Assembly: GCA_934096075.1 (NCBI GenBank)
Contig: CAKOLN010000003.1
Location: 26,184 to 90,183, forward strand
DNA: 64,000 nt
Reading direction: 5' to 3'
DNA from: an uncultured Bacilli bacterium
Lineage (GTDB): Bacteria > Bacillota_I > Bacilli_A > RF39 > UBA660
A program made the translations under genes and the position numbers. Below are positions 1,969 through 55,912 of the stretch, in pieces. The first letter of the stretch is position 1. Every line of letters begins with the position of its first letter. Below the pieces are notes generated by a model. That model had not been told where the DNA came from and did not search any database. It worked only from the letters and a program-made list of their open reading frames with translations.

Positions 1969-2130
1969 TTAATTATATATAGGGTAGGAACTATCCGAGT
2001 TTATGTCTCTTTACATTAATAATAGTATTATTAAATGGAGAAAATTCTAATAGTGATATTAGAAGCATGCGATATTAAATCGTGTGAGGTTCACAATAAA
2101 TGTAAACTAACAATATTTGTTAATTCAATG
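1850..2130 (+). ncRNA. Putative omegaRNA/reRNA of TnpB, derived from the tnpB 3' end plus the IS right end
   Basis: Inferred from established TnpB biology, in which the guide RNA scaffold overlaps the tnpB 3' end and the right end. A structured right-end region with hairpins is present. Not directly demonstrable from sequence alone. Confidence 0.3.
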
Positions 2131-2157
2131 AATTCAATTATGTGATACAATACTATT

Positions 2158-3384: not shown

Positions 3385-3398
3385 GTCTCTTTTATTAT
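3352..3398 (+). repeat. Direct repeat copy 1 (47 nt): stop codon plus rho-independent terminator hairpin of dacB
   Basis: aaaagaaagagactaagaaaaatgagacgataagtctcttttattat; 46/47 identical to 4397-4443. Contains a hairpin (gagact...agtctc) followed by a T-run. Confidence 0.8.
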
Positions 3399-3461
3399 AC
3401 TAAAACATATGATATAATTAATTTGAGACAAACTTAAAAGAGAAAAAATATAAAGAAAGGA

Positions 3462-4412
3462 GTGAAAGAAATGATTGATTTTTCTACTTCAATTGAAGAA
3501 TTAAATAGTTATAAGGGATCAGAAAAAAAGAAAACCTTAATTTACAATGGAAAAAAATATTTAGTAAAATTTCCAGATCCAATAAGAGAAAAAAATAAAA
3601 CAATTTCATATATAAATAATGCTTTTTCAGAATATGTAGGAAGCAATATCTTTAAATTACTAGGATTTGAAACTCAAAATACATTACTAGGTATTTATAA
3701 GTACAATAATAAAGACAAAGTAGTATGTGCTTGTGAAGACTTTACTGACAGTAACCACGAATTGTATGAATTTGAAAATCTTGCACTAAGTACTAATCCC
3801 GATAAAAAAATTCAAACTGAATTAAATGACATAATGGAAGTTATTAATTGGTTGACTAATTCAAAAGATATTAAATTGTATATAAATGATAATATAAAAG
3901 AAAAGTTTTGGAATATGTTTATCATAGACTGCTTAATTGGAAATACCGACAGACATAATGGCAACTGGGGATTATTGGTAAACACTAAAACTAAGGAAGC
4001 AAGTTTTTCACCAATATATGACTGTAGTTCTTGTTTAAATCCAATGTTAGATGATGAGGAATTATCTAAAATAGATGAAATAGAGTTAAAAAATTTAGCA
4101 ATTAATTCATATTCATGTCTTAAAGAAAATGGAAAAAAGATAAATTACATCACTTTCATAAAAAATGCAAAAAACGAAGACTGCAATAAAGCTTTATTAA
4201 GAGTATTTAAAAAAATTAACATAGAAGAAATTAATGACTTTATAGATAGTATAAAAGGAATATCAAAAACAAGAAAAAACTTTTATAAAAACATAATTAA
4301 TTATAGATATAATATATTAAATAAAATACATAAGAAAATAGTTAATTCAAGATATAAAGTAATTAGGGAATCTTATGATAAAATAAACATTGATAGAAAA
4401 GAAAGAGACTAA
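3462..4412 (+). CDS. HipA-like Ser/Thr kinase domain protein (HipA_C / CtkA / HipT-like, short form)
   Basis: 316 aa; the catalytic-loop motif CLIGNTDRHNGNWGLL matches the HipA_C GNxDxHxxN signature. No adjacent HipB/HipS-like small ORF. Own promoter (TGaTATAAT at about 3408-3420) and RBS AAAGGAG. Confidence 0.6.
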   Translation: MKEMIDFSTSIEELNSYKGSEKKKTLIYNGKKYLVKFPDPIREKNKTISYINNAFSEYVGSNIFKLLGFETQNTLLGIYKYNNKDKVVCACEDFTDSNHELYEFENLALSTNPDKKIQTELNDIMEVINWLTNSKDIKLYINDNIKEKFWNMFIIDCLIGNTDRHNGNWGLLVNTKTKEASFSPIYDCSSCLNPMLDDEELSKIDEIELKNLAINSYSCLKENGKKINYITFIKNAKNEDCNKALLRVFKKINIEEINDFIDSIKGISKTRKNFYKNIINYRYNILNKIHKKIVNSRYKVIRESYDKINIDRKERD

Positions 4413-4443
4413 GAAAAATGAGACGTTAAGTCTCTTTTATTAT
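4397..4443 (+). repeat. Direct repeat copy 2 (47 nt): terminator duplicated after the HipA-like gene
   Basis: aaaagaaagagactaagaaaaatgagacgttaagtctcttttattat. It is read in a different frame from copy 1, and here supplies the last codons and stop of the HipA-like ORF. Confidence 0.8.
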
Positions 4444-4546
4444 GTCTAATTCTATCAAATTTCAAAAAAATTCTAGTAATTTCCCCTATTTATGTGCTAT
4501 TATATATATACTAGCGGAGTATTGACTTAAAATTGTACCAAATCTT

Positions 4547-4575
4547 TCACAATTTGCAAATGCATAAAATTGTGA
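4547..4575. promoter_or_regulatory. Promoter of the rplI-dnaB operon with a 9-bp perfect inverted repeat (candidate operator)
   Basis: TTGCAA-17 bp-TGTGATATAAT (extended -10). The inverted repeat tcacaattt...(11)...aaattgtga spans the -35 and -10 elements. Confidence 0.5.
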
Positions 4576-4599
4576 TATAATATACTGACGGAGGATTTT

Positions 4600-5040
4600 A
4601 TGAAGATAATATTACTAGAAAATGTAAAAGGAACTGGAAAAAAAGATGAAATAAAAGAAGTTAAAGATGGCTTTGGAAATTTCCTTATAAAATCAAAAAA
4701 AGCAGTTTCTTATTCAGAAAAAAGTAAAGAGGTTCTAAAAACTCAATTAGAAAACAAAAAAGAAGAAGAAGACAGAATATATAAAGAAGCCTTAGAATTA
4801 AAAAGTAAGTTAGAAAAAACAAAACTAACTTTTAAAGTAAAAACTGGGGCTCAAGATAGAGTTTTTGGTAGTATAAGTTCTAAACAAATAAGTGAAGAAT
4901 TAAAAAAGAAAAACCTTAATGTAGACAAAAAAATAATAGATGCAGAAAACATAAATTCTCTAGGAATGCATTTAGTTAAAATAAAATTACATAAAAAAGT
5001 AACTGCCGAATTAAATGTAGAATTAAAAGGTGGTGAATAA
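4600..5040 (+). CDS. rplI: 50S ribosomal protein L9
   Basis: 146 aa; the N-terminal MKIILLENVKGTGKKDEIKEVKDGFGNFLI is typical of L9; RBS GGAGG. Confidence 0.9.
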   Translation: MKIILLENVKGTGKKDEIKEVKDGFGNFLIKSKKAVSYSEKSKEVLKTQLENKKEEEDRIYKEALELKSKLEKTKLTFKVKTGAQDRVFGSISSKQISEELKKKNLNVDKKIIDAENINSLGMHLVKIKLHKKVTAELNVELKGGE

Positions 5041-6390
5041 ATGGCAAGAAAAGAACCACAAAGTATTGAAGCAGAAATAAATGCTTTAGGATGTGCGTTC
5101 TTAAGTAAAAGTGCTTTAGACAAAGTATGTGAAGAATTAACCATGCCTATGTTTTACCTAGACGGTCATAAAAAAATATTTGAAGCATTATTAAATTTAA
5201 GAAGTACAGACACTGCAGTAGATATAACAACTGTAACTAATGAATTAGAAAGAACTAAATCACTTAGTTCAGTAGGCGGAATAGACTATTTAACTGAAAT
5301 AGTAAATTCAGTCGCAACACCTGCTAACTTAGAATACTACATAAAAATAATATTTGAAAAATACGTATTAAGATGTCTAATAGAAGAATCAACTAAAATA
5401 ATAGATGAATGCTATGATGAATCAGAAGATTTAAATTCTATAGTTGAAGATGCAGAAAAAAGAATTCTTGGAGTAAATAGTGATAGAATGATTAAAGATA
5501 TCAAACCTATTCAAGAAGTCTTAGTAAAAGCACAACAAGAAATAGAATCACTATCTAAAAATGGTGCAGACATAACAGGTGTACCTAGTGGATTTAAAGA
5601 CTTAGATAGAAGAACAGCTGGATTTCATGGCAATGAATTAATTATCTTAGCTGGTCGTCCAGGAATGGGTAAAAGTGCCCTTGCTATAAACATGGCAACA
5701 CATATGACAATAAATGCAAAAAAGTCAGTAGCCTTATTTAACCTAGAAATGGGAGCAACTCAAATAGTAAACAGAATGTTCTCATCCATTGGACAAATAG
5801 ATGGACAAAAACTAAGAACTGGTAGACTAGATCATATGGACTGGAAAAAATTTAACGAAGCATTAAGTCTACTAGCAGATACTAAGTTTTTTATAGATGA
5901 TACACCAGGAATAACAGTCGCAGAAATAAGAAGCAAATGTAGAAAATTAAAAAATAGTGATAAAGGTCTAGACTGTATAATAATAGACTACCTACAACTA
6001 ATAAGCAGTTCAAATAAGTACTCTGGACAAAGAACTAATGAGGTAAGTGAAATATCAAGAGACTTAAAAAAACTAGCAATGGAGTTAGAAGTGCCAGTAA
6101 TCGCCCTTGCACAACTATCTCGTGGTGTGGAACAAAGAGAAGACAAACGACCTTTAATGAGTGACTTAAAAGAAAGTGGCTCAATAGAACAAGATGCAGA
6201 TATTGTAATGTTCATTTATTGTGATGACTATTACAAATTCAAATCAAAAGAAAGACCTGCACTATCACCAACAGAACTAATAATTTCTAAACACAGAAGT
6301 GGTAGTACTGGTACAGTAGATTTAATTTTTGAAAGAGAACATGCTAATTTCAAAAATTATCTAAGAAGTGAGGAAAAAGAAAATGAATAA
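5041..6390 (+). CDS. dnaB: Replicative DNA helicase DnaB (DnaC in Bacillus nomenclature)
   Basis: 449 aa; Walker A GRPGMGKSA, RecA-like C-terminal domain, N-terminal DnaB domain; conserved synteny downstream of rplI. Confidence 0.92.
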   Translation: MARKEPQSIEAEINALGCAFLSKSALDKVCEELTMPMFYLDGHKKIFEALLNLRSTDTAVDITTVTNELERTKSLSSVGGIDYLTEIVNSVATPANLEYYIKIIFEKYVLRCLIEESTKIIDECYDESEDLNSIVEDAEKRILGVNSDRMIKDIKPIQEVLVKAQQEIESLSKNGADITGVPSGFKDLDRRTAGFHGNELIILAGRPGMGKSALAINMATHMTINAKKSVALFNLEMGATQIVNRMFSSIGQIDGQKLRTGRLDHMDWKKFNEALSLLADTKFFIDDTPGITVAEIRSKCRKLKNSDKGLDCIIIDYLQLISSSNKYSGQRTNEVSEISRDLKKLAMELEVPVIALAQLSRGVEQREDKRPLMSDLKESGSIEQDADIVMFIYCDDYYKFKSKERPALSPTELIISKHRSGSTGTVDLIFEREHANFKNYLRSEEKENE

Positions 6391-7846
6391 GAAAAGTATA
6401 TATTGGAGCTCAGTATTTGTAATCATACTAACTAGCCTAATATTTATACTTGGAACAGATAGAAAAAGTTATGATGAAAACCCTGAAACTGTTTATCAAG
6501 TATATCTAAACGGTCAAACAATAGGTGTCATCAAAAGTGAAGATGCCCTATATGACTTAATAGATAAAGAACAAAAAAATCTTAAAAAAGAATACAAAGT
6601 AAATAAAATATATGCTCCAATCGGACTAGAAGTAACTAAATTAGTAACATATGATAGTGAACTAGACGATGTAAAAGAAGTTTATAATAAAATAAAAGAT
6701 GAAGAACCATTTACTGTAAAAGGTTATGAAGTAACAATAACACATGATGAAAATAACATAGAAAAAATAAATGTACTAGATAAAAAGGACTTTGATACAG
6801 CAGTAGAAAATACAATAAAAGCTTTCGTAGATGAAACTGAATATGAAAAATACTTAAATGAAACTCAAGATGAAATAATAACAACAGGTTCAACTATAGA
6901 AAATATAAATATAAAAGAAAATATAACTATAAAAGAAAAATATCTAAGTACAGAAGACAAAATATATAGAGACGCAAATGAATTAAGTAGATACATGTTA
7001 TTTGGTACTGATGAAACTCAAGGAACACACATAGTAACCGCAGGAGAAACAATTAAACAAATTGCTGACGAATATGAACTATCAGTAAAAGAATTCTTAA
7101 TAGTTAACCCTGAAATAGTAAGTGAAAATGCATTATTATTTAACGGACAAGAAGTTAATGTAGGACTAGTAAAACCAATAATAAGTATTGTAGTAGAAAA
7201 TAATCTAGTTGAAGATAAAACAGTACCATATCAAAGTCAAACGAAATATGATAATAAATATGTGGTTGGTACAACATGGACAGAACAAACTGGACAAAAT
7301 GGTATCAGTAGAGTTGAATACTATACAGAAACAATAAATGGTGTAATAACTCAAGTAATACCATTAAGTACAGAAGTAATTAAACCAGTAGTAGATGAAG
7401 TAATAGTAAAAGGTGGTCTATCTATAAACTATGTAGGTGACACAGGTGCTTGGTATTGGCCAACAATAAGACCATATGTAATAACTTCATACTTTGGATG
7501 GAGAACAGACCCAATATCTGGAGAACATACATATCACCGTGGAATAGATATTTCCGGTACAGGTTATGGTTCACCAATATATGCTGCTCAATCAGGTACA
7601 ATCACTAGAATTGGATGGGCTGGAGACATGGGTAATTACATTTACATAGATCACGGAAAAGGATTCCAAACAATCTACATGCATTTAAGTGGTTTTGCAG
7701 ATGGAATGAGAAGTGGAGTTGCAGTAACTAAAGGAGAATTAATTGCATATATGGGAAGTACTGGATATTCAACTGGTACACACTTAGACTTCCGTATAAT
7801 GGCGAATGGTGTTTACATAGACCCACTAGGAGTAAAATATAACTAA
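6368..7846 (+). CDS. Membrane-anchored LysM plus M23 family metallopeptidase
   Basis: N-terminal TM; LysM-like segment (TAGETIKQIADEYELSVKEFLIVNPEI); M23 motifs HRGIDISG and HLDFRI. Confidence 0.8.
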   Translation: MRKKKMNKKSIYWSSVFVIILTSLIFILGTDRKSYDENPETVYQVYLNGQTIGVIKSEDALYDLIDKEQKNLKKEYKVNKIYAPIGLEVTKLVTYDSELDDVKEVYNKIKDEEPFTVKGYEVTITHDENNIEKINVLDKKDFDTAVENTIKAFVDETEYEKYLNETQDEIITTGSTIENINIKENITIKEKYLSTEDKIYRDANELSRYMLFGTDETQGTHIVTAGETIKQIADEYELSVKEFLIVNPEIVSENALLFNGQEVNVGLVKPIISIVVENNLVEDKTVPYQSQTKYDNKYVVGTTWTEQTGQNGISRVEYYTETINGVITQVIPLSTEVIKPVVDEVIVKGGLSINYVGDTGAWYWPTIRPYVITSYFGWRTDPISGEHTYHRGIDISGTGYGSPIYAAQSGTITRIGWAGDMGNYIYIDHGKGFQTIYMHLSGFADGMRSGVAVTKGELIAYMGSTGYSTGTHLDFRIMANGVYIDPLGVKYN

Positions 7847-8607
7847 TGAAAATCCATATACTAGGAAGTGGATCTAAAGGAAACTCTACATTTATAGATT
7901 TAGGAAACAAAAAAATCTTAATAGATGTAGGGTTTTCCTATAAACATATAAAAGAACAACTATCTAAAATAAACATAGATCCTAAAGAAATAGATGCTGT
8001 TCTAATAACCCATGACCATTCAGATCACACATATGGACTACCTGTATTTATAAACAAAGTTAACCCATTATTATATATAACTCCAGAAGTAGAAGAAGTA
8101 ATACTGAAAACACCTTACGAAAAAAGTATCTATTTAGGTGATGAATTATATATAGATGACGCTATGATAAAAGTAATACCTACATCTCATGATGCATTAA
8201 CATCAAATGGTTTTCTAATAGAAAAAAATAATGAATCTCTAGTATACATAACAGATACTGGTTACATAAATCAAAGATACTTTAAATTCCTACAAAACAA
8301 AACATACTACATAATAGAAAGCAACCATGATACCGAAAGATTAATAAAAGGAAGGTATCCAGAATATTTACAAAGAAGAATACTTAGTGATAAAGGACAC
8401 CTATCTAATGAATTATGTGCAGGTTATCTATCTAGATTTATCGGACCAAATACAAAAAAAGTTGTACTAGCACACTTATCAGAAGAAAATAATACAATAG
8501 ATTTAGCTTTAAACACAACTGAGTCAGTACTTAAAGAAAATAATATAAGTTTTTCAAACATAACATGTGCAAGTCAAACAGAATTAACCGAGGTAACTAA
8601 TGATTAA
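7846..8607 (+). CDS. MBL-fold metallo-hydrolase (YycJ/WalJ-like)
   Basis: 253 aa; HDHSDH motif; its position before rlmH matches yycJ-rlmH synteny in Bacilli. Confidence 0.75.
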   Translation: MKIHILGSGSKGNSTFIDLGNKKILIDVGFSYKHIKEQLSKINIDPKEIDAVLITHDHSDHTYGLPVFINKVNPLLYITPEVEEVILKTPYEKSIYLGDELYIDDAMIKVIPTSHDALTSNGFLIEKNNESLVYITDTGYINQRYFKFLQNKTYYIIESNHDTERLIKGRYPEYLQRRILSDKGHLSNELCAGYLSRFIGPNTKKVVLAHLSEENNTIDLALNTTESVLKENNISFSNITCASQTELTEVTND

Positions 8608-22748: not shown

Positions 22749-22820
22749 AGAAAGTGTTAAAAACTTTCTTTTTTCTTTTATTAACAAAAAATTATGTATA
22801 TAATAAAATTGGTGATATAT

Positions 22821-23960
22821 ATGAGAAAACTAAAAAATATCAAAGTAGAAAATAAAAAAGTATTAGTAAGAGTAGACTATAATGTACCAATTAAAAATGG
22901 TTTAGTCTTAGATAACAATAGAATAATACAAAGCATTGAAACAATAAATTACTTGATTGAACATAATGCTAAAATAATACTTATGTCTCACATGGGAAAA
23001 GTAAAAAAAGTAGAAGATAAAATGTTAAATACTTTAAAACCAGTAAAAATAGAATTAGAAAGAATATTAAATAGAAAAATTTATTTTGCTGAAGAATTAA
23101 AAGGAAAAGCATTAGAATCTCAAATTAACTCTCTTAAACCAGGAGAAATCTTACTAATGGAAAACACCAGATACATGGATGTTCCAGATAACTTAGAAAG
23201 TAGTTGTGATGAAGAACTTTCTAAATACTGGGCTAGTCTAGGAGATGTATTTATTCTAGATGCCTTTGGTTCATGTCATAGAAATCATGCATCTACTTAT
23301 GGAATAAGTAAGTACTTACCACATGCTATAGGTTTCTTAATAGAAAGAGAATTAAAAGAATTAAATAAAATAAAAAAAGATAAAAAAACTTTCATACTAG
23401 GTGGATCTAAAGTTAGTGATAAAATAGGCATAATAAAAAATCTAATGGACAACACCGACAAATTCTTAATTGGAGGTGCTATGTGTGCAACATTCCTAAC
23501 TGCGAATGGTAATCCAGTAGGAAGTACTTTTGTAGAAACTGATAAAATAACAGAATGTAAAAATCTTTTAAAAACAGGAAAAATAATAATTCCAATAGAC
23601 TATGTAACAGAAAATGGAGTAAAAAAATTAAATGATATATTTAATGATGAACACATACTAGATATTGGACCTAAAACAATAGAACTATTCAAAAATAGAA
23701 TTGATATAAATACCCTTATAGTATTAAACGGAACACTAGGTAAATATGAAGAAGATGCATATCAAAATGGTACAAAAGAAATATTTAATTATCTAAAAGA
23801 AAACATAGTAAAAACAGTAGTGCTTGGTGGAGATACATCATCTGCTGCAAAAAAATATAACTTTAATGCATCATACATTTCAACTGGAGGAGGAGCAAGC
23901 CTAGAATATCTAGAAGGTAAAGAATTTGAAACACTAAAAATAATGGAGGAATCCAAATGA
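22821..23960 (+). CDS. pgk: Phosphoglycerate kinase
   Basis: N-terminus MRKLKNIKVENKKVLVRVDYNVP; C-terminal GGGAS; the upstream ORF-track extension is unlikely. Confidence 0.9.
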   Translation: MRKLKNIKVENKKVLVRVDYNVPIKNGLVLDNNRIIQSIETINYLIEHNAKIILMSHMGKVKKVEDKMLNTLKPVKIELERILNRKIYFAEELKGKALESQINSLKPGEILLMENTRYMDVPDNLESSCDEELSKYWASLGDVFILDAFGSCHRNHASTYGISKYLPHAIGFLIERELKELNKIKKDKKTFILGGSKVSDKIGIIKNLMDNTDKFLIGGAMCATFLTANGNPVGSTFVETDKITECKNLLKTGKIIIPIDYVTENGVKKLNDIFNDEHILDIGPKTIELFKNRIDINTLIVLNGTLGKYEEDAYQNGTKEIFNYLKENIVKTVVLGGDTSSAAKKYNFNASYISTGGGASLEYLEGKEFETLKIMEESK

Positions 23961-24649
23961 AAACAATAGTACTGAATCATAAAAGTTACCTAAGTTATAA
24001 TGAAATAAATAAATATAAAGAAAAAATAAATAACATCCAAACTAAAAATATTAACCTAGTATTAATGCCTAACTTAGCATATCTATCATTATTTAAAGAT
24101 TCTAAAATTAAAATAGGTGCCCAAAATTTCTATAGTTATAACTATGGTTCATACACTGGTGAAATACCTCTTGAAATATTAAAAAGTCTAAACATAAATT
24201 ACACCCTAGTAGGCCATCCAGAAAGAATCACCTTAAAATTAGACACATATGAAGAAATAAAAGAAAAACTATATAGAAGCCTTAACTCAGGTTTCAAAAC
24301 TATTCTTTGTATAGGACATGATGAAAAACTAAGTACAATAAAAAAAGAATTAAAATATTACATAAAATCCTCAGACTATATAGACATAAAAAACTTAATA
24401 ATCGCATATGAACCAATATCTAAAATAGAAAATGAAGAAGCTAACTTAAAAGACATAGAATATTTAAATAAATATATAAAAGAATACTTCATGTATGAAT
24501 TTGAAGAAGAAATAGAATTTTTCTATGGAGGTTCAGTTAATAAAGAAAACATAAATGAAATTCTTAACATAACAGATGGTGTTATAATAGGAAAACTTAG
24601 TACTGACATAAACTCAGTTAAAGAAATAATAGAAAATATAACAAAATAA
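23957..24649 (+). CDS. tpiA: Triosephosphate isomerase, highly divergent (TIM-like)
   Basis: 230 aa; alignable to TIM: K near the N-terminus (NHKSY), catalytic His (GHPERI versus GHSERR), catalytic Glu (AYEP), and YGGSV. However, the loop-6 AIGTG is replaced by SKIENEE and the GGAS phosphate loop by GKLS. ATGA overlap with pgk. Confidence 0.65.
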   Translation: MKTIVLNHKSYLSYNEINKYKEKINNIQTKNINLVLMPNLAYLSLFKDSKIKIGAQNFYSYNYGSYTGEIPLEILKSLNINYTLVGHPERITLKLDTYEEIKEKLYRSLNSGFKTILCIGHDEKLSTIKKELKYYIKSSDYIDIKNLIIAYEPISKIENEEANLKDIEYLNKYIKEYFMYEFEEEIEFFYGGSVNKENINEILNITDGVIIGKLSTDINSVKEIIENITK

Positions 24650-24767
24650 AAACTATAAATACATTTCATGACACAAATCGTCATTATTAGACATAACTAG
24701 ACCTTTTTCGCTATGGATTTATGTATAATAAATTTATATAATAAAGACAGTGTTAAAGGAGAAATAA

Positions 24768-25532
24768 ATGAAAAAGAAAATAATGATTGTGGATGATAAC
24801 AAGGCCTTAGTAGGTATGTTAAAAGAGTTTATAAATAATACTAATGACTTAACATTATTAAAAGAAGCATATAATGGTGGAGAAGCATGGGAATATATAA
24901 AAGATAATTATAGTGAAATAGATGCTTTAATATTGGACTTAGTAATGCCAGAAAAAGATGGAATGTATTTATTAGACAAATTAAAAGAAAACAAAATAAA
25001 TTTAAAAATATTAGTATTAACAAGTTACAACGAACAAGAAACAATAAGAAATGTAAGTGAATATGGAGTAAAATATTTCATGCTAAAACCATTTGACTTA
25101 CAAGAATTACATAAAAGAATACAAGATATAACAAATCCTAAAGCAAAAGAAGCAAAAATAATAAATGTAGAAAAGAATAATACTCAAGCAATGATAACTA
25201 AACTCTTACATGAACTAGGAATACCATCACATATTAAAGGCTATCAATACATAAGAGAAGCCATCAATATGGTATATGATGATCCTAAACTTATAGGAGG
25301 CATAACTAAAGAATTATATCCAGAGATAAGCACTAAATATGGTCAATCAGTAACTCGAGTAGAAAGAGCAATTAGACACGCTATTGAAGTGAGTTGGAAT
25401 CGTGGAGATTGGGACTTAATGGAAGAAATCTTTGGACACTCAGTTGATATAGATCGAGCAAAACCTACAAACTCAGAATTTATAGTAACAATCGCAGACA
25501 AACTAAGATTAGATATGCTAAAAATACATTAA
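24768..25532 (+). CDS. spo0A: Sporulation master regulator Spo0A (REC plus Spo0A_C DNA-binding domain)
   Basis: 254 aa; receiver domain (DDN...D, LDLVMP); C-terminal Spo0A signature HIKGYQYIREAI...ISTKYGQSVTRVERAIRHAIEVSWNRGD...EFIVTIADKL. Confidence 0.9.
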   Translation: MKKKIMIVDDNKALVGMLKEFINNTNDLTLLKEAYNGGEAWEYIKDNYSEIDALILDLVMPEKDGMYLLDKLKENKINLKILVLTSYNEQETIRNVSEYGVKYFMLKPFDLQELHKRIQDITNPKAKEAKIINVEKNNTQAMITKLLHELGIPSHIKGYQYIREAINMVYDDPKLIGGITKELYPEISTKYGQSVTRVERAIRHAIEVSWNRGDWDLMEEIFGHSVDIDRAKPTNSEFIVTIADKLRLDMLKIH

Positions 25533-25584
25533 TTCTTTAAATTAAAAAAGAAATGTGCTAGAATGTATCTAGGTGATAAAAATA

Positions 25585-27093
25585 ATGAAAAAAGTAATAT
25601 TATTAATACTAGATGGATTTGGAATAAACAACAGTGAATATGGAAATGCAATAAAACAAGCAAGAACACCTGTAATAGATAAACTTCTAACAGTTTTTCC
25701 ACATGCACAATTAGCGGCTTCAGGAATAGAAGTTGGACTTCCAAAAGGACAAATGGGAAATAGTGAAGTTGGACACATGACTATAGGTAGTGGTAGAATT
25801 AATCCACAACCATTAACATACATAAATGATAAAATAAAAAGTAAAGAGTTTTTTGATAATGAAGTACTAAAAAATACAATGAACTTTGTAAAGGAAAATA
25901 ACTCAACACTTCACTTAATAGGACTTCTTTCTAATGGTGGAGTTCACTCAAGTATAAATCATTTCTATGCAGCTCTAGCAATGGCTAAACTAGAACATGT
26001 AGAAAAAGTGGTATTTCACTTTATAACTGATGGAAGAGATACAGATCCTAAAAGTGGAGTTAAATTTGTAACGGACTTTATGGAAAAAGCAAATAAACTT
26101 AAACTAGGAGAAATAGGTACTATCTCAGGTAGATATTATGCAATGGATAGAGATAATCGTTGGGAAAGAATAAAAAAATCCTATGATGCAATGTGCTACG
26201 GATTAGGTAATTCTTTTTCAAACTATGAAAGTTGTTTTAAAGAACACTATAAAAGAGATATAACCGACGAATTTATTAATCCAAGTATACTATCAAATAA
26301 CACTATAAAAGATAATGATGCAATACTATTTATTAACTTTAGACCAGAAAGAATGAAAGAACTAATAGATGCATTTCATGATAAAAACTTTAAACCATTC
26401 AAAACAAAACAATATCAAAACTTAAAATTAACATCTTTATTTAACATACATCAAGATATTGAATATGCTTTTGATACTGAAAAACCAAAAGAAACATTTG
26501 GTGAATACATAGATGGATTAGATTATACACAAGCAAGAATAGCTGAAACAGAAAAATATGCTCATGTTACATACTTCTTTGATGGAATGGAAGAACTATC
26601 AAGTAACAAATGTGATAAAATATTAGTACCATCTCCAAGTGTACCAACATATGATATGAAACCTGAAATGAGTGTAGGAGAAGTAACAGAAAATGTTTTA
26701 AAAGCAATTGATAATGATTATGATTTCATATTAGTTAATTTTGCAAATCCAGACATGGTTGGACACACAGGTAACTTTAATGCAACTAAAGATGCTATAG
26801 AAATATGTGACTTCTGTGTAGGAAAAATATTTGAAGCAGCTAAAGAACATTTCTATGAACTAGTAATAACTGCTGACCATGGTAATGCAGAAAAAATGTT
26901 AACAAGAGATGGAACACCAATAACTAGTCACACAACAAGTCTTGTTCCTTTCATAGTATGTAATGAAGAATATAAATTAAAAGAAACAGGATCACTAAAA
27001 GATATAATACCAACAATAATAGATATATATCAAATAAAAAAACCAGACAAAATGACTGGAGAAAGTTTAATAATTAAAGAAGATTCAAAGTAG
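25585..27093 (+). CDS. gpmI: 2,3-bisphosphoglycerate-independent phosphoglycerate mutase
   Basis: Start MKKVILLILDGFG; Ser-phosphotransfer region MGNSEVGHMTIG; metal-binding ADHGNAE; AGGTGA RBS. Confidence 0.9.
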   Translation: MKKVILLILDGFGINNSEYGNAIKQARTPVIDKLLTVFPHAQLAASGIEVGLPKGQMGNSEVGHMTIGSGRINPQPLTYINDKIKSKEFFDNEVLKNTMNFVKENNSTLHLIGLLSNGGVHSSINHFYAALAMAKLEHVEKVVFHFITDGRDTDPKSGVKFVTDFMEKANKLKLGEIGTISGRYYAMDRDNRWERIKKSYDAMCYGLGNSFSNYESCFKEHYKRDITDEFINPSILSNNTIKDNDAILFINFRPERMKELIDAFHDKNFKPFKTKQYQNLKLTSLFNIHQDIEYAFDTEKPKETFGEYIDGLDYTQARIAETEKYAHVTYFFDGMEELSSNKCDKILVPSPSVPTYDMKPEMSVGEVTENVLKAIDNDYDFILVNFANPDMVGHTGNFNATKDAIEICDFCVGKIFEAAKEHFYELVITADHGNAEKMLTRDGTPITSHTTSLVPFIVCNEEYKLKETGSLKDIIPTIIDIYQIKKPDKMTGESLIIKEDSK

Positions 27094-27163
27094 TCTTCTT
27101 TTTTATAATACTTTTTGATAAAATAAAATTATCACAAATTAACAAAAGATGAGGAGTTTAGCT

Positions 27164-28033
27164 ATGAAATACTATATAGAATTACAGGGAACTTGTTGGT
27201 TAGTTCAATACTTAAATTATATTAATAAAGATTATGATAAAGACAGTTTTTTTAAATATCTAGCACTAAATAGATTTTTAAGATACGAAAAGGCAATAAA
27301 ACTTGTTAATAACAAAGAACTTATTAACACTAAAGAATACTTATTAGAAACATTATTAACATTTGAAGGAAGTTTATTTGATATTGAAGATATATTAAAC
27401 TATAAAATAAATTGGGATTTAAAAAATGATATTAAACTAGAAGATATAATGTTAATGAATGAAAAAGTATTGATGTTTTTATTAGAAATGTATGATAACA
27501 ATATAGACTTGAGTAACAAGATTTTTGAAAAGTTAAATAAAACATTTGGTAATTTAAAATTTGAAAAAAATAAAAAAAACACACTTAATATAGTGATAAG
27601 TAATCCAAAATTAGAATACAAAAAAATAAATCTAATTAACAGTGAAAACCTATATCATACTCAGAAAAGTTTTTATAATGTACAAAATGTTAATGAAATA
27701 ATAGATAGAGAATTGACAAAAAACAAAAAGGTTTTAGTTTCAATAGATATAGCTAAATCAGTAACAGACATAAACAAAATTATATATCCGAAAGGAATAA
27801 AAAAGGATACTTTAAATAAATTTATATCTATAGATAATCACTATTACATATTAACTGAAAAAATAACTCTAAATAATGAAACATATTATAAAGCATTCAC
27901 TGGATATCAAAATGATGAATATGCATTAATTTCAAATAAATATTTGAAAGAGTTTCTAAATCATATAATATGTGATAAAATAACAATTAAAGAAGAAACA
28001 ACACTAGATTTTTATAAATATATGGAGGAATAA
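27164..28033 (+). CDS. Hypothetical protein
   Basis: 289 aa from the ATG after the GAGGAG RBS; no motifs recognised. Confidence 0.45.
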   Translation: MKYYIELQGTCWLVQYLNYINKDYDKDSFFKYLALNRFLRYEKAIKLVNNKELINTKEYLLETLLTFEGSLFDIEDILNYKINWDLKNDIKLEDIMLMNEKVLMFLLEMYDNNIDLSNKIFEKLNKTFGNLKFEKNKKNTLNIVISNPKLEYKKINLINSENLYHTQKSFYNVQNVNEIIDRELTKNKKVLVSIDIAKSVTDINKIIYPKGIKKDTLNKFISIDNHYYILTEKITLNNETYYKAFTGYQNDEYALISNKYLKEFLNHIICDKITIKEETTLDFYKYMEE

Positions 28034-28034
28034 A

Positions 28035-28820
28035 ATGCAAGAAATATCAAAATCAAATGAAAAAGTAAAAGAATTAAAAAACTTAAAAAATAAGGGAAAA
28101 AACAATTTAATGGTAGTAGAAGGTTTAGATGTAATTAAAGAAGCAATAAACTATAATGCTGAAATAATGAGTGTGTTTTATAATGAAGAAACATTAAGAG
28201 ATGAGGCACTAGAATTATTAAATGAATGTAAAAAAAGAGCAAAAGAAGTATATAGAATTTCGCTTAAAACATTTGAATCATTAAAAGAAAAAGAAAATGC
28301 AATACCTATCATAATTGTTGTTAAATATAAAGAATTAACATTAAAAGATATAGACAAAAATAAACATAAATTAATAATAGTAAATGATAGAATAGAATTA
28401 CCAGGTAACTTAGGAACTATATATAGAAGTGCATATGCAAGTGGAGTAGACCTAATAATAAATGTTAATCCTGTAACAACAATATACAAAGAAAAATTCT
28501 TGGCCAGTTCAAGAGGAACGATATTCAGTATTCCTACTATAAATACTACATATGAAGAAGCCCAAAAATCACTTTTAGAATTAGGCTATGATATATGTCT
28601 TTGTGAACCAGTTGAAGGAACATCATATAATGAATTTGACTATCAAGAAAATACAGCATTAGTAATAGGAAATGAAAGATTTGGAATTAATAAAGAATGG
28701 TACAATAACAAAAATAGTAAAGTATTTATACCAATGAAAGAAGGTATTAATTCAATAAATGTTTCAGTCGCAGGCTCAATAATAATGTTTGATGCTGGTA
28801 TAAAAATGAGGAAAATATGA
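28035..28820 (+). CDS. TrmH/SpoU-family RNA 2'-O-methyltransferase (RlmB-like)
   Basis: 261 aa; SPOUT motifs (LVIGNERFGI, SINVSVAGSI); stop overlaps the start of the downstream radical-SAM gene (ATGA). Confidence 0.7.
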   Translation: MQEISKSNEKVKELKNLKNKGKNNLMVVEGLDVIKEAINYNAEIMSVFYNEETLRDEALELLNECKKRAKEVYRISLKTFESLKEKENAIPIIIVVKYKELTLKDIDKNKHKLIIVNDRIELPGNLGTIYRSAYASGVDLIINVNPVTTIYKEKFLASSRGTIFSIPTINTTYEEAQKSLLELGYDICLCEPVEGTSYNEFDYQENTALVIGNERFGINKEWYNNKNSKVFIPMKEGINSINVSVAGSIIMFDAGIKMRKI

Positions 28821-30022
28821 AATTAAGTAAATATGTAATTAAGATTCCATATGGCACTAAAGTGATTTTATATAATACAGTAAATGATATGATTGTACTT
28901 TGCGATTATAAAGACTTTTTTAACAAAGAAACAAAACAATATTTAAAAAATAATGGATATTATGATAATAGTGAAAAACAATTAAAAAATTTTATAAAAA
29001 ATACTAAAAAGAAAAGAACCCAACTTGATATAACAATAAGTTTAACAGAGAGTTGTAATTTATGCTGTAAGTACTGCTCTCAAAGTGGAGTAAAAAATGA
29101 TTCATTTATAACTAAAGAAATAATTGATGAAATAATAGAATACATAGAAATTTGTAAAAATAAATATGGCTATAAAACATTTTCAATCCATTTATTTGGT
29201 GGAGAACCATTATTACAAAAGCAGGAGATTCTATATTTAAATAACAAATTAAAAGAAAAAAATATACCAATAAATTATTATATGGATACTAATGGAATAT
29301 TGTTAAGTGAAAAATTTATAAAAGAATTTGATAATATAACTTTTTGTGTAACATTAAGTAACAAATGCGACCACGATAATCTAAGAGTTACTTCAAACAA
29401 TACTGGAAGTTATGATTTAATTATGGAAAATCTAAACAAAATTCAGTATGTACTTGATAACAATCATAGATTAATGGTTAGATATAATGTGAATGATAGA
29501 AATATAAATGACTTAGAAGAATTCCTTAAAACAATTGAAAACATTAAAATAAGTGATTTTGTTGTAGCCTATACAAATAATTATAAAGAAAATTTATTTA
29601 TAAATAAATTACCTTATAAAAAGTATAAAAAATGGAATTCTAAAAAAATAATACCACTACTAGAAAAATATAATTATCCTATATCACTTCCTACATCAAG
29701 TTTTTATTGTAAAGGCTATGAAGACTATTCTATAAAAGTCTTTTCGAATGGTAAAATAGGTATGTGTAATGCCTATGATATTAGTAATTCAAAATATACA
29801 TTAAAAGAAATATTAGAAAACTACTATAAAACAAAAAAACTTATAAAACCTTTTGAAGAAGAAAGAAATCTTGATAATATAATAGATAAAGAATGTAAAA
29901 AATGTGCATTAATATATATATGTAATGGTAAATATTATTGCAGAGATAATAAATGTGATTTTTTAGATTATAATTTAAAAGAATACATTAAATCATATGT
30001 AAAAAATGTATTGAATAAATAA
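28817..30022 (+). CDS. Radical SAM enzyme with C-terminal SPASM/twitch-like Cys cluster and ~75-aa N-terminal extension (putative peptide-modifying maturase)
   Basis: 401 aa; CxxxCxxC as CNLCCKYC at about residues 80-87; C-terminal Cys cluster (MCNAY...CKKCALIYICNGKYYCRDNKC); the N-terminal extension before the rSAM core fits an RRE-like domain. Confidence 0.7.
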   Translation: MKLSKYVIKIPYGTKVILYNTVNDMIVLCDYKDFFNKETKQYLKNNGYYDNSEKQLKNFIKNTKKKRTQLDITISLTESCNLCCKYCSQSGVKNDSFITKEIIDEIIEYIEICKNKYGYKTFSIHLFGGEPLLQKQEILYLNNKLKEKNIPINYYMDTNGILLSEKFIKEFDNITFCVTLSNKCDHDNLRVTSNNTGSYDLIMENLNKIQYVLDNNHRLMVRYNVNDRNINDLEEFLKTIENIKISDFVVAYTNNYKENLFINKLPYKKYKKWNSKKIIPLLEKYNYPISLPTSSFYCKGYEDYSIKVFSNGKIGMCNAYDISNSKYTLKEILENYYKTKKLIKPFEEERNLDNIIDKECKKCALIYICNGKYYCRDNKCDFLDYNLKEYIKSYVKNVLNK

Positions 30023-30061
30023 AATAATTTGGTAAAATATAGTTAAGAAAGGAATTAAATT

Positions 30062-30166
30062 ATGAAAGTAATTAAGAAACCCGTTAAAAAATCTAAAATT
30101 AATGCAGCAGGATGTGGAGAAAACAAGGTTAATAGTAGCCATTGTGCATCAAAGAAAAGTAATTAA
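30062..30166 (+). CDS. Small ORF (34 aa) absent from the ORF track: candidate RiPP precursor / signalling peptide
   Basis: MKVIKKPVKKSKINAAGCGENKVNSSHCASKKSN; RBS AAAGGAA 8 nt upstream; a strong hairpin terminator (aggcccatatgggtct plus T-run, 30174-30200) lies immediately downstream; two Cys residues; sits directly after the rSAM/SPASM gene. Confidence 0.5.
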   Translation: MKVIKKPVKKSKINAAGCGENKVNSSHCASKKSN

Positions 30167-30272
30167 TTAGATTTAGGCCCATATGGGTCTTTATTTTTGT
30201 ATAAAATTACCACTACTTGCATTTTTTTTAAATTGTGCTAAAATAAAGTACACTGAAAAGAGGCGATTATAT

Positions 30273-32036
30273 ATGTCATTAATAAAAAAAGATACAAATT
30301 ATCCTAGTATTGATAAAACTCACGAAAAACAATATAATTTTTTTGAAAATAATCCAATAATTCCAAGCATAAGCATATTTAATGCAATAAACCTTATTAG
30401 TAAAAGCTATTCTAATGAAATTGCTGTTAATAGTTTAGAACTTAACAAGACTTTTAAATCGCTAATAAAAGATTCTGCTTTGCTTTCTAAAGCATTTAAA
30501 GAACTTGGAATAAAAAATGGTGACATAATTGTTGTATCAATGCCTAATTATTATCAAGCTGTAATTACTTTTTTTGCAGCAAATCGCATTGGAGCAACAA
30601 CAACATTTTTAAATTCATTTAGTAGTAAAGAAGAAATTAGTAATTATTTAAACTTATTTGAATCGCCTTTATTTATAAATTATAATAAAAGTGAAGAATA
30701 TAACAAATATATAAAAAATAATACAAAAGTAAGACAAATTATAACCCTATATGAAAAAGATTTAAATATGCCATATTTTAATGATAATACTAATAATTTT
30801 ATAGGCTATAATGATTTTATTTCTTTTAATGATGCAAAATTAGTTGGTAATTACTATAAAAAGCCATTAACAACATTATATGGAGGAAAAGAAAATGCTT
30901 TAATATTATACACAAGTGGAACTACAGGTAATCCAAAATCAGTAGTTTTAACCAATGAAAATATCTTGGCCTCAGGAATATACATGAAAAATTCAACAAA
31001 TTTATCAAATACTAAAGGAGAAAAATCATTAGTATGTGTACCATTTACTTACCCTTATGGTTTTTCAACATCAACATTAATGAGTTTATTATGTGGTAGA
31101 CAAGCAATTCTAGCACCTGATTTATCAAGTGAAAATATAAAAACATATTTAAAGAAAAATCCAAATATAATTTTTGGAAGCCCAGCATTATTAGAACTTA
31201 TAAAAAGAAATACACCTGAAAATCAAGATTTGTCATCAATTAAAACATTTATATCTGGTGGTGATTTTCTAACAGAAACGCAAGCGAAAGAAGGAAAAGA
31301 ATTTTTTAAAAAGCATAATGCAGAAGTAACAATATGTAATGGTTCTGGAAATGCGGAGACAGTTGGCGCCAGCACAAACTCAGTAGGAATAAAAATAAAA
31401 CCAGAAACAGTCGGAAAAATTCTAGTGGGCACAAAAGCAATTGTTATTAATCCTGACACAATGAAAGAATTAAAATATGGTGAAGAAGGTTTATTATGCA
31501 TAAGTGGTAAACATGTGTTTAAAGAATATTATAAAGAGCCAAAACTAACACAGGATTCAAAATTTATTTACAAAGGTAATACATATTTTAAAACAGGAAC
31601 AAGAGGCAAAATAGATAAAGAAGGTTACTTTACTTTAACTGGAAGAGATTCAAGATATTATATTATCTCAACTTTAAATAAAGTATATTGTGATAGAGTA
31701 CAATTAATTATGTCTAGAATAGATTGCATAGAAGCAGTAGCAATAGTAGAAAAACCTGACAAAGAAATGTTGTTTACAAACAAAGCATTTATTGTGTTAA
31801 AGGAAGGTATAAAAGCAAGCGAGGCAATAAAAAAATATATATTAAGAAAATGCACTGAAACTTTGAAATTAGAAAACGGAGAAGATGTTGAACTAAAAGA
31901 ATATGAAATACCTAGTAGCATAGAATTTGTTGAAAAATTGCCTAGAACCAAAGCAGATAAAATTGATTACAATGTTTTAAAAGAAAATGCAATAAATGAA
32001 TATAAAGAAGAACAGCATATACTAAAGCTTAAATAG
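30273..32036 (+). CDS. AMP-dependent synthetase/ligase (adenylate-forming enzyme, acyl-CoA-ligase-like)
   Basis: AMP-binding motif LYTSGTTGNPKSVVLT; A-domain-like architecture; RBS AAGAGG; start at the ATG at 30273. Confidence 0.8.
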   Translation: MSLIKKDTNYPSIDKTHEKQYNFFENNPIIPSISIFNAINLISKSYSNEIAVNSLELNKTFKSLIKDSALLSKAFKELGIKNGDIIVVSMPNYYQAVITFFAANRIGATTTFLNSFSSKEEISNYLNLFESPLFINYNKSEEYNKYIKNNTKVRQIITLYEKDLNMPYFNDNTNNFIGYNDFISFNDAKLVGNYYKKPLTTLYGGKENALILYTSGTTGNPKSVVLTNENILASGIYMKNSTNLSNTKGEKSLVCVPFTYPYGFSTSTLMSLLCGRQAILAPDLSSENIKTYLKKNPNIIFGSPALLELIKRNTPENQDLSSIKTFISGGDFLTETQAKEGKEFFKKHNAEVTICNGSGNAETVGASTNSVGIKIKPETVGKILVGTKAIVINPDTMKELKYGEEGLLCISGKHVFKEYYKEPKLTQDSKFIYKGNTYFKTGTRGKIDKEGYFTLTGRDSRYYIISTLNKVYCDRVQLIMSRIDCIEAVAIVEKPDKEMLFTNKAFIVLKEGIKASEAIKKYILRKCTETLKLENGEDVELKEYEIPSSIEFVEKLPRTKADKIDYNVLKENAINEYKEEQHILKLK

Positions 32037-32110
32037 AATTTATTCGAATAAATATTAAATAAATTCTTTTTTTGTGATATAATTTACTTAAAATACGAGG
32101 AGTTGATTAT

Positions 32111-34327
32111 ATGGGAACTGGAATATACTTTCCAATTAGTGCTTTATTATTTAGCTTATTGATAATGTTATTATTCTTTTTAAAAGAACATATTAATACA
32201 ATGGAAACAAAACTTTATGGTGCAATAGTTATAACAAATTTTTTAGGTTTAATCATTGAAATCCTATGTACATTAGCATCAAAAATATATGAAACTAATA
32301 AACTTTTTGCAGACATTATCTTAAAATTATATCTAGTTTATTTAGTAACATGGGCACTAATATTTACGATTTATATAATATTAATTTCATTTAATAATAA
32401 TAAACTAAAAAATAATAAAGAAAAATTACTTAGAATCGCAAAAATATTTTATTTTATTTCAGTAATAATAATTTATATTTTACCAATTGATTTAGTAATA
32501 AAAAATAATTTTTCAATAAGATATACAACTGGACCAAGTGTATATTTTACATACTTTATTTCATTTGTAATGATTATAGTTATGCTTTATTGTATGATAA
32601 AAAATTATAAAAATTTGAAATCAAAGAAATACCTACCATTATTTACTTTTTTAACTTTAGGTACTGCAACGATGATTTTTCAAATGATTAATCCTCAATT
32701 TTTATTAATAACATATATGGAAACATTTATAACTGTATTAATGTATCATACAATTGAAAACCCAGATGTTAAAATGAAAAATGAATTAGAACTAGCCAAA
32801 AATAAAGCAGATCAAGCAAATAATGCAAAATCAGATTTCTTATCAAGTATGTCGCATGAAATAAGAACACCATTAAATGCAATTGTAGGTTTATCAGAAA
32901 ATATGCAAACAGAAACAAACATGAATGTAATACATTCTAATGCAAAAGATGTAGTCGATGCAAGTTATATACTTTTAGATATAGTAAATAGTATACTAGA
33001 TATAAGTAAAATAGAAGCAGGAAAAATGGAAATGGTAAATACTAACTATAATCTAAAAAGTGAAGTAAAAAAACTAGTAAAACTATTAGAAACAAGAATA
33101 GGAGAAAAAGATTTAAAACTAGTAACAAATATAAGTGATGAAATACCAAATGTATTATATGGGGATGTAAATAAAGTAAAACAAATAATAACAAACTTAG
33201 TAACAAATGCAATAAAATATACAGACAGTGGAGAAGTAGATTTCACAATAGATGCAGAAAACAAAGATGATAAATGTAACTTAACAATAACAGTAAAAGA
33301 TACAGGAAGAGGAATAAAAGAAGAACAACTAAAACACCTATATGAAAAATTTGAAAGACTAGAAAGTGATAAAAACACAACAATCGAAGGAACAGGATTA
33401 GGACTAGCAATAACAAAACAATTAGTAGGAATGTTTAAAGGAACAATAACAGTAGATAGTATATATGGAAAAGGTTCAACATTCAAAGTAACACTAACAC
33501 AAGACATAAAAGAAGGAGTAATACTAGAAGAACATAATGAAACAGAACAACAAAAATATAATAATGTAAAAGTACTAGTAGTAGATGATAGTAGTCTAAA
33601 CTTAAAAGTAGCCGACACAATATTAAGAAAATATAATATAGAAACAGAACTAGTAACAAGTGGACAAGAATCAATAGAAAAATGCAAAACAAATAAATAT
33701 GATATAGTATTTATGGACATAATGATGCCTTCAATGTCAGGAGAAGAAACATTAAAAAAACTAAAAGAAATAAAAGACTTTAACACACCAGTGGTAGCCT
33801 TAACCGCAGATGCAATGGAAGGAAAGAAAGAAATATATCTAAGTGAAGGATTTATAGATTATCTAAGTAAACCAATACAAAGACCAGAATTAGAAGAAGT
33901 ACTAGGTAAAATATTAAGTAATAACATTTCATCAGAAACAAGAACAGAAGATAAAAGTACAAATAACCTATCATACTTAGAAGAACACGGTATAGATACA
34001 AAAACGCCATTAGAAATGTTTGGTAGTGAAGAAATGTACATAGATTCAATAAAAACATTTATAGAAGAAACACCAGAATCTTATACTAATCTTATGAGAT
34101 ACTATTTAGACAATGATTTAGAAGATTATAAAATTTTAGTTCACAAATTAAAAAGTGAAAGCAGGTATATTGGACTAAATAAATTCTCAGATATGTGTTT
34201 AGAACATGAAATAAAAGCAAAAGAAGGGGATAATCAATATATAATATCTAACTTTAGTAGCTTAATAAAAGAATACAAAAATGTAATGAGAATATTAAAA
34301 GATTTTATATGTACGACAAATAAATAA
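32111..34327 (+). CDS. Hybrid sensor histidine kinase (7 TM – HisKA – HATPase_c – REC – HPt)
   Basis: 738 aa; seven N-terminal TM helices; H-box SHEIRTPLNAI; N/G boxes (NAIKYT, GTGLGLAI); REC (VLVVDDSSLN...FMDIMMP); C-terminal HPt-like helix with HKLKSES. Confidence 0.8.
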   Translation: MGTGIYFPISALLFSLLIMLLFFLKEHINTMETKLYGAIVITNFLGLIIEILCTLASKIYETNKLFADIILKLYLVYLVTWALIFTIYIILISFNNNKLKNNKEKLLRIAKIFYFISVIIIYILPIDLVIKNNFSIRYTTGPSVYFTYFISFVMIIVMLYCMIKNYKNLKSKKYLPLFTFLTLGTATMIFQMINPQFLLITYMETFITVLMYHTIENPDVKMKNELELAKNKADQANNAKSDFLSSMSHEIRTPLNAIVGLSENMQTETNMNVIHSNAKDVVDASYILLDIVNSILDISKIEAGKMEMVNTNYNLKSEVKKLVKLLETRIGEKDLKLVTNISDEIPNVLYGDVNKVKQIITNLVTNAIKYTDSGEVDFTIDAENKDDKCNLTITVKDTGRGIKEEQLKHLYEKFERLESDKNTTIEGTGLGLAITKQLVGMFKGTITVDSIYGKGSTFKVTLTQDIKEGVILEEHNETEQQKYNNVKVLVVDDSSLNLKVADTILRKYNIETELVTSGQESIEKCKTNKYDIVFMDIMMPSMSGEETLKKLKEIKDFNTPVVALTADAMEGKKEIYLSEGFIDYLSKPIQRPELEEVLGKILSNNISSETRTEDKSTNNLSYLEEHGIDTKTPLEMFGSEEMYIDSIKTFIEETPESYTNLMRYYLDNDLEDYKILVHKLKSESRYIGLNKFSDMCLEHEIKAKEGDNQYIISNFSSLIKEYKNVMRILKDFICTTNK

Positions 34328-50967: not shown

Positions 50968-52541
<1,574 letters not shown>

Positions 52542-52822
52542 ATGGAGTAATAACTAGTAGAAAAAAGAACCGTAAATATCATTCGGGGTTTGCTTAATTG
52601 AAACATGATATATTATAAACTAACATAAAACACATTTTACTCGGCTTTGAGAGATTATTTCTCTCAATATTGTATTTAATTATACGATAATTGTTCTTTG
52701 AAAACTTGATAATGTGATGTTCATATTGTTCTTACGAGCAACAATATGAATGCTTAATTTTTTGGTAATTTATTTAAAGATAAATATTAAGAAATAGCTC
52801 ATCAAATTAGGATATATAAAGT

Positions 52823-55740
<2,918 letters not shown>

Positions 55741-55805
55741 CATTTAATTTGATGTTTTTAATCACATTATCTTGTTTTGAGAGAACAATTATGGTATAAT
55801 CATTT

Positions 55806-55912
55806 TATTGGTGACGATAGCAAAGTGGATACACCTGTTCCCATCTCGAACACAGAAGTTAAGCACTTTAACGGCGAAGATAGTGTAAGCGAAAATAGCA
55901 AGTTGCCAATAT
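55806..55912 (+). rRNA. rrf: 5S ribosomal RNA
   Basis: GTTCCCATCTCGAACACAGAAGTTAAGC core; terminal helix UAUUGG/CCAAUA. The ends are approximate. Confidence 0.85.

Follow-up and report, generated by a model that had tools for sequence, protein, structure and literature searches.

Uncharacterised families of radical-SAM (rSAM) RiPPs are numerous, and a conserved leader joined to a variable core is the usual pattern of a RiPP precursor. Three groups of described systems are closest to the locus reported here. In the ranthipeptides CteA-CteB (SCIFF/thermocellin) and PapA-PapB (freyrasin), a small Cys-containing precursor adjoins a maturase composed of an RRE, a radical-SAM and a SPASM domain. 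In the sactipeptides (subtilosin/AlbA, sporulation killing factor/SkfB, thuricin CD), Cys thioethers are installed by rSAM enzymes with a SPASM or Twitch domain on a leader-dependent small precursor. In the streptococcal RaS-RiPPs (streptide StrA/StrB-SuiB, NxxcA/NxxcB), a very short precursor with a short leader adjoins an rSAM/SPASM gene.

We analysed a 64,000-nucleotide stretch of DNA (the window) from an uncultured host lineage of 25% GC and probably reduced genome. It contains a 34-aa ORF whose ATG lies 39 nt downstream of the stop of an rSAM/SPASM gene on the same strand. We propose that this ORF encodes a RiPP precursor and that its partner is the enzyme encoded just upstream, a reading to which we assign a probability of about 0.8. 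The pair shares with the ranthipeptides and the RaS-RiPPs the adjacency of a small precursor to an rSAM/SPASM gene, and with SCIFF also a Clostridia-like, low-GC host and a housekeeping-like context. However, the window precursor possesses two Cys, not six (the SCIFF model has six Cys in about 45 residues), carries neither the SCIFF nor the Cys-X3-Asp motif, and is located downstream of its enzyme. The sactipeptides resemble it in their small leader-dependent precursors and in their Cys thioethers (in the window, predicted ones), yet the window peptide has no hydrophobic hairpin core, the window has no dedicated transporter or protease genes, and structurally SkfB matches the enzyme much less well (rank 17). 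With the RaS-RiPPs it shares a very short precursor and a short leader, and it happens to carry an Asn four residues before each Cys; by contrast, there are no shp/rgg quorum-sensing genes near the window pair, and the arrangement is N-x3-C rather than NxxC. Judged by sequence criteria, the precursor/maturase pair is outside every curated family tested, including SCIFF and PapA/PapB. It would add to the radical-SAM RiPPs an uncurated precursor/maturase family whose very short precursor has two Cys and a recognition motif at its extreme N-terminus. In the literature covered (most subscription journals lay outside it), no description of this peptide family or of a SpoU-linked rSAM RiPP was found.

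The features of the window that bear on this reading are as follows.

25573-27093: iPGM, upstream of the block
27149..28033, + strand: 294-aa protein with a predicted compact C1B-like fold (bleomycin hydrolase / aminopeptidase C), first gene of a four-gene block
28035..28820, + strand: TrmH/SpoU-family RNA 2'-O-methyltransferase with an L30e-like RNA-binding N-domain (Pfam/NCBIfam); its stop overlaps the rSAM start (ATGA)
28817..30022, + strand: radical-SAM/SPASM peptide maturase, 401 aa (Pfam, NCBIfam, AF2, Foldseek)
30011..30038, + strand: promoter-like site TTGAAT-16 nt-(TGg)TAAAAT with a TG extension (promoter scan), overlapping the 3' end of the rSAM gene
30048-30054, + strand: Shine-Dalgarno AAAGGAA, 7-nt spacer to the ATG
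30062..30166, + strand: candidate 34-aa precursor peptide gene, ORF MKVIKKPVKKSKINAAGCGENKVNSSHCASKKSN, with a basic, leader-like N-terminal part MKV(I/V)KK.. and a core containing Cys18 and Cys28
30175..30200, + strand: intrinsic-terminator-like hairpin with a 6-bp stem (one G·U pair) and a 4-nt loop, then TTTATTTTTG
30273-32036: AMP-dependent ligase, 587 aa, downstream of the peptide
32111-34327: hybrid histidine kinase
from about 34.6 kb: S10 ribosomal operon, downstream
50969-55911: rRNA operon

The ORF had been missing from the supplied ORF list only because of its 60-aa cut-off. An earlier note on this DNA had nevertheless picked it out as a candidate precursor from its ribosome-binding site, the terminator-like hairpin after its stop and the 250-nt gap around it, all of which we found in place, the gap between the flanking genes being 30023-30272. 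Six of the first 12 residues are Lys, in line with the lysine-rich N-terminal half described in the note, and both Cys are in the C-terminal half, as the note had it. Other details required correction. The Shine-Dalgarno was rightly identified but is 7 nt from the start codon rather than 8; the Cys spacing is C-x9-C rather than C-x11-C, with C-x8-C, C-x3-C or C-x2-C in relatives; of the GCGEN motif expected to be conserved, 'GCG' is kept and the remainder is not; and the terminator stem described as perfect (aggccc/gggtct) holds one G·U pair. A longer version of the ORF is not possible because an in-frame TAA is located at 30056-30058. The same 34-aa product has already been called, without a name, on 77 public contigs; samples with the locus include ERZ27260640, ERR11570370 and SRR32508931, and a six-frame search of the 64-kb window revealed no further copies of the peptide.

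The signals around the ORF recur in its relatives. A purine-rich Shine-Dalgarno is found at the equivalent place in 8 of 8 loci. The hairpin at 30175-30190 (AGGCCC-ATAT-GGGTCT; -10.5 kcal/mol, z = -2.0), together with TTTATTTTTG, is the sole terminator-like site within 27-33 kb. In L088, a locus related at 98%, the stem is agaccc/gggtct and entirely Watson-Crick, the G·U pair of the window being replaced by A-U. A hairpin and U-run after the stop are seen in the window, L088, L091 (weak), L092, L086 and L093 with differing sequences, and in L082 they are placed further downstream. Seven of the 8 loci have a -10-like TGnTAAAAT/TATAAT element at the corresponding place. The locus itself is very AT-rich (about 25% GC), and promoter-like sites in the AT-rich DNA of the window are not commoner than in shuffled sequence; the putative site at 30011..30038 may serve the peptide as a promoter of its own. 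If so, it may increase the amount of peptide mRNA, on top of an operon in which the four genes for the C1B-like peptidase, SpoU, rSAM/SPASM and the peptide (27149-30166) would be transcribed together up to the hairpin.

Next, we examined the conservation of the reading frame, which was the check named by the earlier note. A search with the rSAM protein gave 28 homologues in 5.8 billion clusters, and contigs were taken for those of 98-42% identity. The small ORF was present on every fetched contig that reaches beyond the rSAM stop (L082-L088, L091, L092 and L093), so that the frame is kept in all loci extending far enough. The peptides of these loci include the following.

L088 and L091: same as in the window
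L092: MKIIKKAVKKGKINAAGCGAEKVNSSHCPSKKSN
L082: MKVVKNANKKSKINAAGCGSGKVNSSHCSSKKTN
L084: …NSCHC…
L086: MKVIKKNTKKSKINASGCGSSKMSSHCSSKKSN, one codon lost in frame
L093: MKVVKKPKKIMSSGCGSSKVSSHCQSRKNG

Among seven diverged orthologous loci, dN/dS was 0-0.38 for all pairs (Nei-Gojobori), and variable columns in the codon alignment were distributed over codon positions 1, 2 and 3 as 11, 6 and 21. Between the window and L091, the peptide gene has accumulated nine synonymous and no non-synonymous changes, the chance of which is about 0.186^9. As the rSAM proteins of the same two loci are only 72% identical, the peptide is under tighter constraint than its enzyme. The peptide ORF is a real gene under purifying selection. 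Since reduced genomes keep few accessory genes, such strong selection suggests a function important to the cell. A 44-aa variant (P0030 / P0082; MKVVKNATKKSKINATGCDEEKANSSPCSSKRYHTICIISKSVL), in which the C-terminus is altered and longer and contains extra Cys, could be either a frameshifted allele or a separate subfamily.

The strongest support for the precursor reading, absent from the earlier note, is the rSAM/SPASM gene upstream. Its 401-aa product possesses the CX3CX2C cluster motif (C80, C84, C87) and seven Cys in the SPASM region (C298, C317, C360, C363, C369, C375 and C380). C80/C84/C87, C298-x13-G-x4-C317 and C360-x2-C363-x5-C369…C375…C380 are invariant or nearly so in 19 homologues. 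The best NCBIfam matches were all RiPP maturases, namely PapB (5.9e-21), geopeptide, CefB, CcpM and YhhB; the PapB model gave 75 bits against a cut-off of 340, and the remaining maturase models were also far below their cut-offs. CteB (5WGG) is the closest sequence in the PDB. In Foldseek, CteB was again at the top (E = 3e-16, full-length alignment), with SuiB second, followed by anSME, TigE and SkfB; EpeE was matched too. By all sequence and fold hallmarks, the enzyme is a peptide maturase. An AF2 model (pLDDT 86) places strands at 7-12, 15-20 and 25-30 and helices at 31-35, 37-45 and 52-63, giving an N-terminal β3α3 domain that is RRE-like, with the PqqD-like topology of a RiPP recognition element predicted for it. 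From this model and the analogy to CteB, the basic MKV(I/V)KKP.. segment of the peptide would be the leader that docks on the RRE-like domain. Reductive cleavage of SAM would then yield a 5'-deoxyadenosyl radical to abstract hydrogen at a core position, and thioether crosslinks like those of sacti- or ranthipeptides would form from Cys18, Cys28 or both.

Relatives of the pair were then sought in more distant lineages. Homologues of the rSAM enzyme with 30-42% identity adjoin small Cys-containing peptides in L001-L004, L007, L009, L093 and L104; in the scan of a genome collection, the rSAM relatives among the matches listed were at most 35% identical. The peptides at these loci, in addition to that of L093 given above, are listed below.

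L001: MVVVKKPIKSIKIVCGCGNGNWSSQCKKDQ, 30 aa, upstream of the enzyme
L002: two copies, MKIVKKPV…
L003: MRVIINKKNLKSKSVACGGCQGSHSG
L004: MKVVKEKSVISMCCAGCNGSGASDIVDE
L007: MRIIVKSKDDSNKKGPLVWDCGECNGSRSDR
L009: two-repeat peptide, 4398-4589
L104: MKIVINLKSSDKRGKASVSVDEVCGGMCRAEYQG, a metagenome locus

These peptides have in common an N-terminal M-K/R-V/I-V/I…K motif and two invariant Cys, whereas their cores vary. The precursors are 26-34 aa long. In an alignment of 13 family sequences, only M1 and both Cys are invariant, with K5 nearly so. A conserved leader and a variable core give the family a RiPP-type pattern. As the spacing between the two Cys ranges from 2 to 9 residues, the members do not simply share one crosslink topology. 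When the L093 and L002 peptides were searched against the window in six frames, only the ORF at 30062-30166 was matched (E = 8e-8 and 4e-6). Co-occurrence and co-variation of the peptide with this rSAM subfamily across lineages argue for a partnership of peptide and enzyme. Taken together with the kept frame and the maturase gene next to it, the precursor-peptide interpretation of the earlier note is upheld.

The boundaries of the family were also apparent. Beside about 140 more distant rSAM loci listed, the family signature was not found, apart from a stray match at L075 that looks unrelated. An exhaustive phmmer search with the peptide against 1.84 billion representatives gave two true relatives only, and a metagenome scan added one new peptide-bearing locus (L104) and a close, truncated one (L098); the family is thus either rare or rarely called. 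None of nine family peptides matched a precursor family in NCBIfam or Pfam, even at E <= 10, and this holds for the window precursor in NCBIfam. An NxxC-type Asn-Cys motif was considered and rejected, because L086 and L093 do not keep the Asn positions.

Several individual loci merit separate mention. In L093 (2961-4292; P0014), there is no stop between rSAM and peptide, resulting in a 443-aa fusion in which the Shine-Dalgarno and ATG of the peptide are kept; this fusion is either natural or an artefact of sequencing or assembly. At 4398-4589 of L009, the core is present in two tandem repeats (…GCYTPCQQGSSGGNK…), making it a multi-core precursor, and the rSAM ORF of the same locus is in two pieces (3129-3551 and 3561-4346). 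An ABC transporter adjoins the peptide-enzyme pair in L007, as in bacteriocin clusters. L006 (5998-8542, Enterococcus casseliflavus NBRC 100478), and likewise L101 and L102, contain two tandem rSAM/SPASM genes with 33% identity to the window enzyme; a search near these tandem genes showed no peptide bearing the family signature.

What the enzyme does to the peptide is a separate question from whether it is the partner. The most likely chemistry is that the two invariant Cys form thioethers, because the nearest structures and families are thioether-forming and no other core residue is invariant. If the peptide is modified in the first place, we put a thioether crosslink at somewhat better than even odds. 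Alternatively, the peptide may be an rSAM substrate that undergoes formylglycine-type oxidation, epimerisation, C-C or C-O crosslinking or methylation, with its Cys serving cluster binding, a disulfide or a metal site. The Foldseek neighbours give this some room, as they include anSME (Cys oxidation), SuiB (Lys-Trp C-C) and EpeE (an epimerase); no curated thioether-maturase model reached its cut-off, and the varying Cys spacing is no argument for a fixed ring. However, the best matches in both sequence and fold, CteB and PapB, form thioethers, the two Cys are the only invariant residues of the core, and the peptides lack a conserved Trp, Tyr or Lys-Trp type motif. We regard a non-thioether modification as the leading alternative, albeit an unlikely one, to a thioether-crosslinked RiPP.

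The gene in front of the enzyme invites a further interpretation. The SpoU protein belongs to an RrmA/AviRb/NshR-like subgroup and not to RlmB proper (NshR/TsnR, 77.9 bits vs a cut-off of 425; RlmB, 95.9 vs 160), although the SpoU proteins of all loci score as generic TrmH family. The SpoU gene adjoins rSAM in the clade of the window and in L093, L098, L001, L003 and L009. By contrast, SpoU homologues of 41-53% identity have no rSAM gene called beside them and reside in housekeeping contexts, and rSAM and peptide occur without SpoU in L002, L004, L007 and L104. The adjacency of the two genes in several lineages, while each also occurs without the other, indicates that their linkage is a real recurrent pattern. 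In L001, the operon comprises SpoU, a 296-aa protein, U32 (UbiU/TrhP-like), the peptide and rSAM (869-8210) and has a tyrosine integrase on one side and a large serine recombinase on the other, which suggests that the TrmH/SpoU-rSAM-peptide module can be mobile.

The TrmH/SpoU-rSAM-peptide operon is translationally coupled in the window and is found in at least four deeply diverged lineages. NshR, Tsr and AviRb, which confer self-resistance in producers of thiopeptides or orthosomycins, are comparable in that the window SpoU falls in the same subgroup, has an L30e-like N-domain and is part of an operon with a RiPP enzyme; they differ in that the window protein scores far below the NshR/TsnR cut-off and its closer homologues lack an rSAM neighbour. 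The recurrent operon could be a ribosome-directed module, an idea that we hold to be distinctly improbable as it stands. In one version, the crosslinked basic peptide would be a ribosome-targeting antibiotic and 2'-O-methylation would provide self-immunity to the producer; in another, a crosslinked micro-protein would work on the ribosome within the cell, alongside rRNA modification. The recurrent linkage to an RNA methyltransferase is a concrete lead on target or immunity. Should the antibiotic version be true, a gut bacterium of reduced genome would apply thiopeptide-like logic to a chemical class that is new.

The same surroundings can be read without any modification of the peptide. The ORF could encode a genuine small, basic protein that is not altered by the rSAM enzyme: a micro-protein that binds metal or associates with RNA or the ribosome and shares the TrmH operon by chance. 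The peptide is Lys-rich and very basic as a whole (pI 10.1), like small ribosomal proteins, and its gene shares an operon with that of an RNA methyltransferase. The surroundings are housekeeping (glycolysis, ribosomal operon), and the exporters, immunity genes and regulators that are typical of bacteriocin clusters were not found in the window. But the family tracks rSAM and not SpoU, being without the latter in four loci, it is fused to rSAM in L093, and its conserved leader and variable core are typical of RiPPs. An unmodified micro-protein is consequently very unlikely in our estimate, well behind a RiPP precursor with a different chemistry.

The four-gene block (294-aa protein, SpoU, rSAM and peptide) is kept together while its flanking genes change between loci, the gene after the peptide being that for the AMP-ligase, a PlsC acyltransferase, GtrA or iPGM. 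A short ORF followed by a terminator ahead of a gene is the layout of an attenuator, yet we give next to no credence to a regulatory leader peptide or attenuator for the AMP-ligase gene, or to a chance ORF in a non-coding spacer or RNA element, because the amino-acid sequence is under purifying selection, the ORF is kept while the downstream gene changes (which effectively refutes the idea), an Rfam search of the spacer gave no family at gathering score or E <= 1, and the sequence after the terminator, which the window and L088 have in common, holds by eye a promoter-like TTGCAT…TGcTAAAAT motif, suggestive of a transcription unit of its own for the downstream gene.

The first gene of the block may bear on the maturation of the putative RiPP precursor. 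Its 294-aa product had no Pfam or NCBIfam match at E <= 0.01, PF03051 (Peptidase_C1_2) included, apart from a spurious one to NhaR, and its homologues are confined to the clade of the window, one of them being labelled as a hypothetical protein of a 'Tenericutes bacterium' MAG. Q13-G-T-C16-W17 and H231 are invariant. An AF2 model (pLDDT 87) positions C16 at the N-terminus of a helix and predicts a papain-like fold with a Gln/Cys/His catalytic arrangement. Invariant Q13, C16 and H231, together with the placement of C16 in the model, make the protein a candidate compact C1B-like cysteine peptidase. Compared to peptidase C1B (bleomycin hydrolase, PepC/PepW), it is about 150 residues shorter and only 15% identical, and from its modelled fold it may represent an undescribed minimal C1B subfamily. 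That this co-operonic candidate peptidase cuts off the leader is speculative. L093 encodes a true homologue of 302 aa (probability 94.7%). Homology to the 296-aa protein of the L001 operon was considered as well and discarded, with an hhalign probability of 0.3%.

Downstream of the block, a comparison of the window (30167-32110) with L088 (4351-5660) showed a difference in the gene that follows the peptide. The rSAM proteins are 98% identical, the peptide is the same and about 85 nt after its stop are conserved; these comprise the terminator and the promoter-like stretch mentioned above, which was noticed by eye and is absent from the promoter-scan output. The next gene encodes a PlsC-type acyltransferase (382 aa) in L088 and the AMP-dependent ligase (587 aa) in the window, with the same hybrid histidine kinase after both. 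The difference is a strain-level cassette swap of two lipid or acyl-activating genes. Upstream of the block, a Spo0A gene (24768-25532; TIGR02875, 264 bits) stands between tpiA and the iPGM gene of the glycolytic gap-pgk-tpi-gpmI cluster (22794-27093), which is unusual in a lineage whose relatives are binned as 'Tenericutes'.
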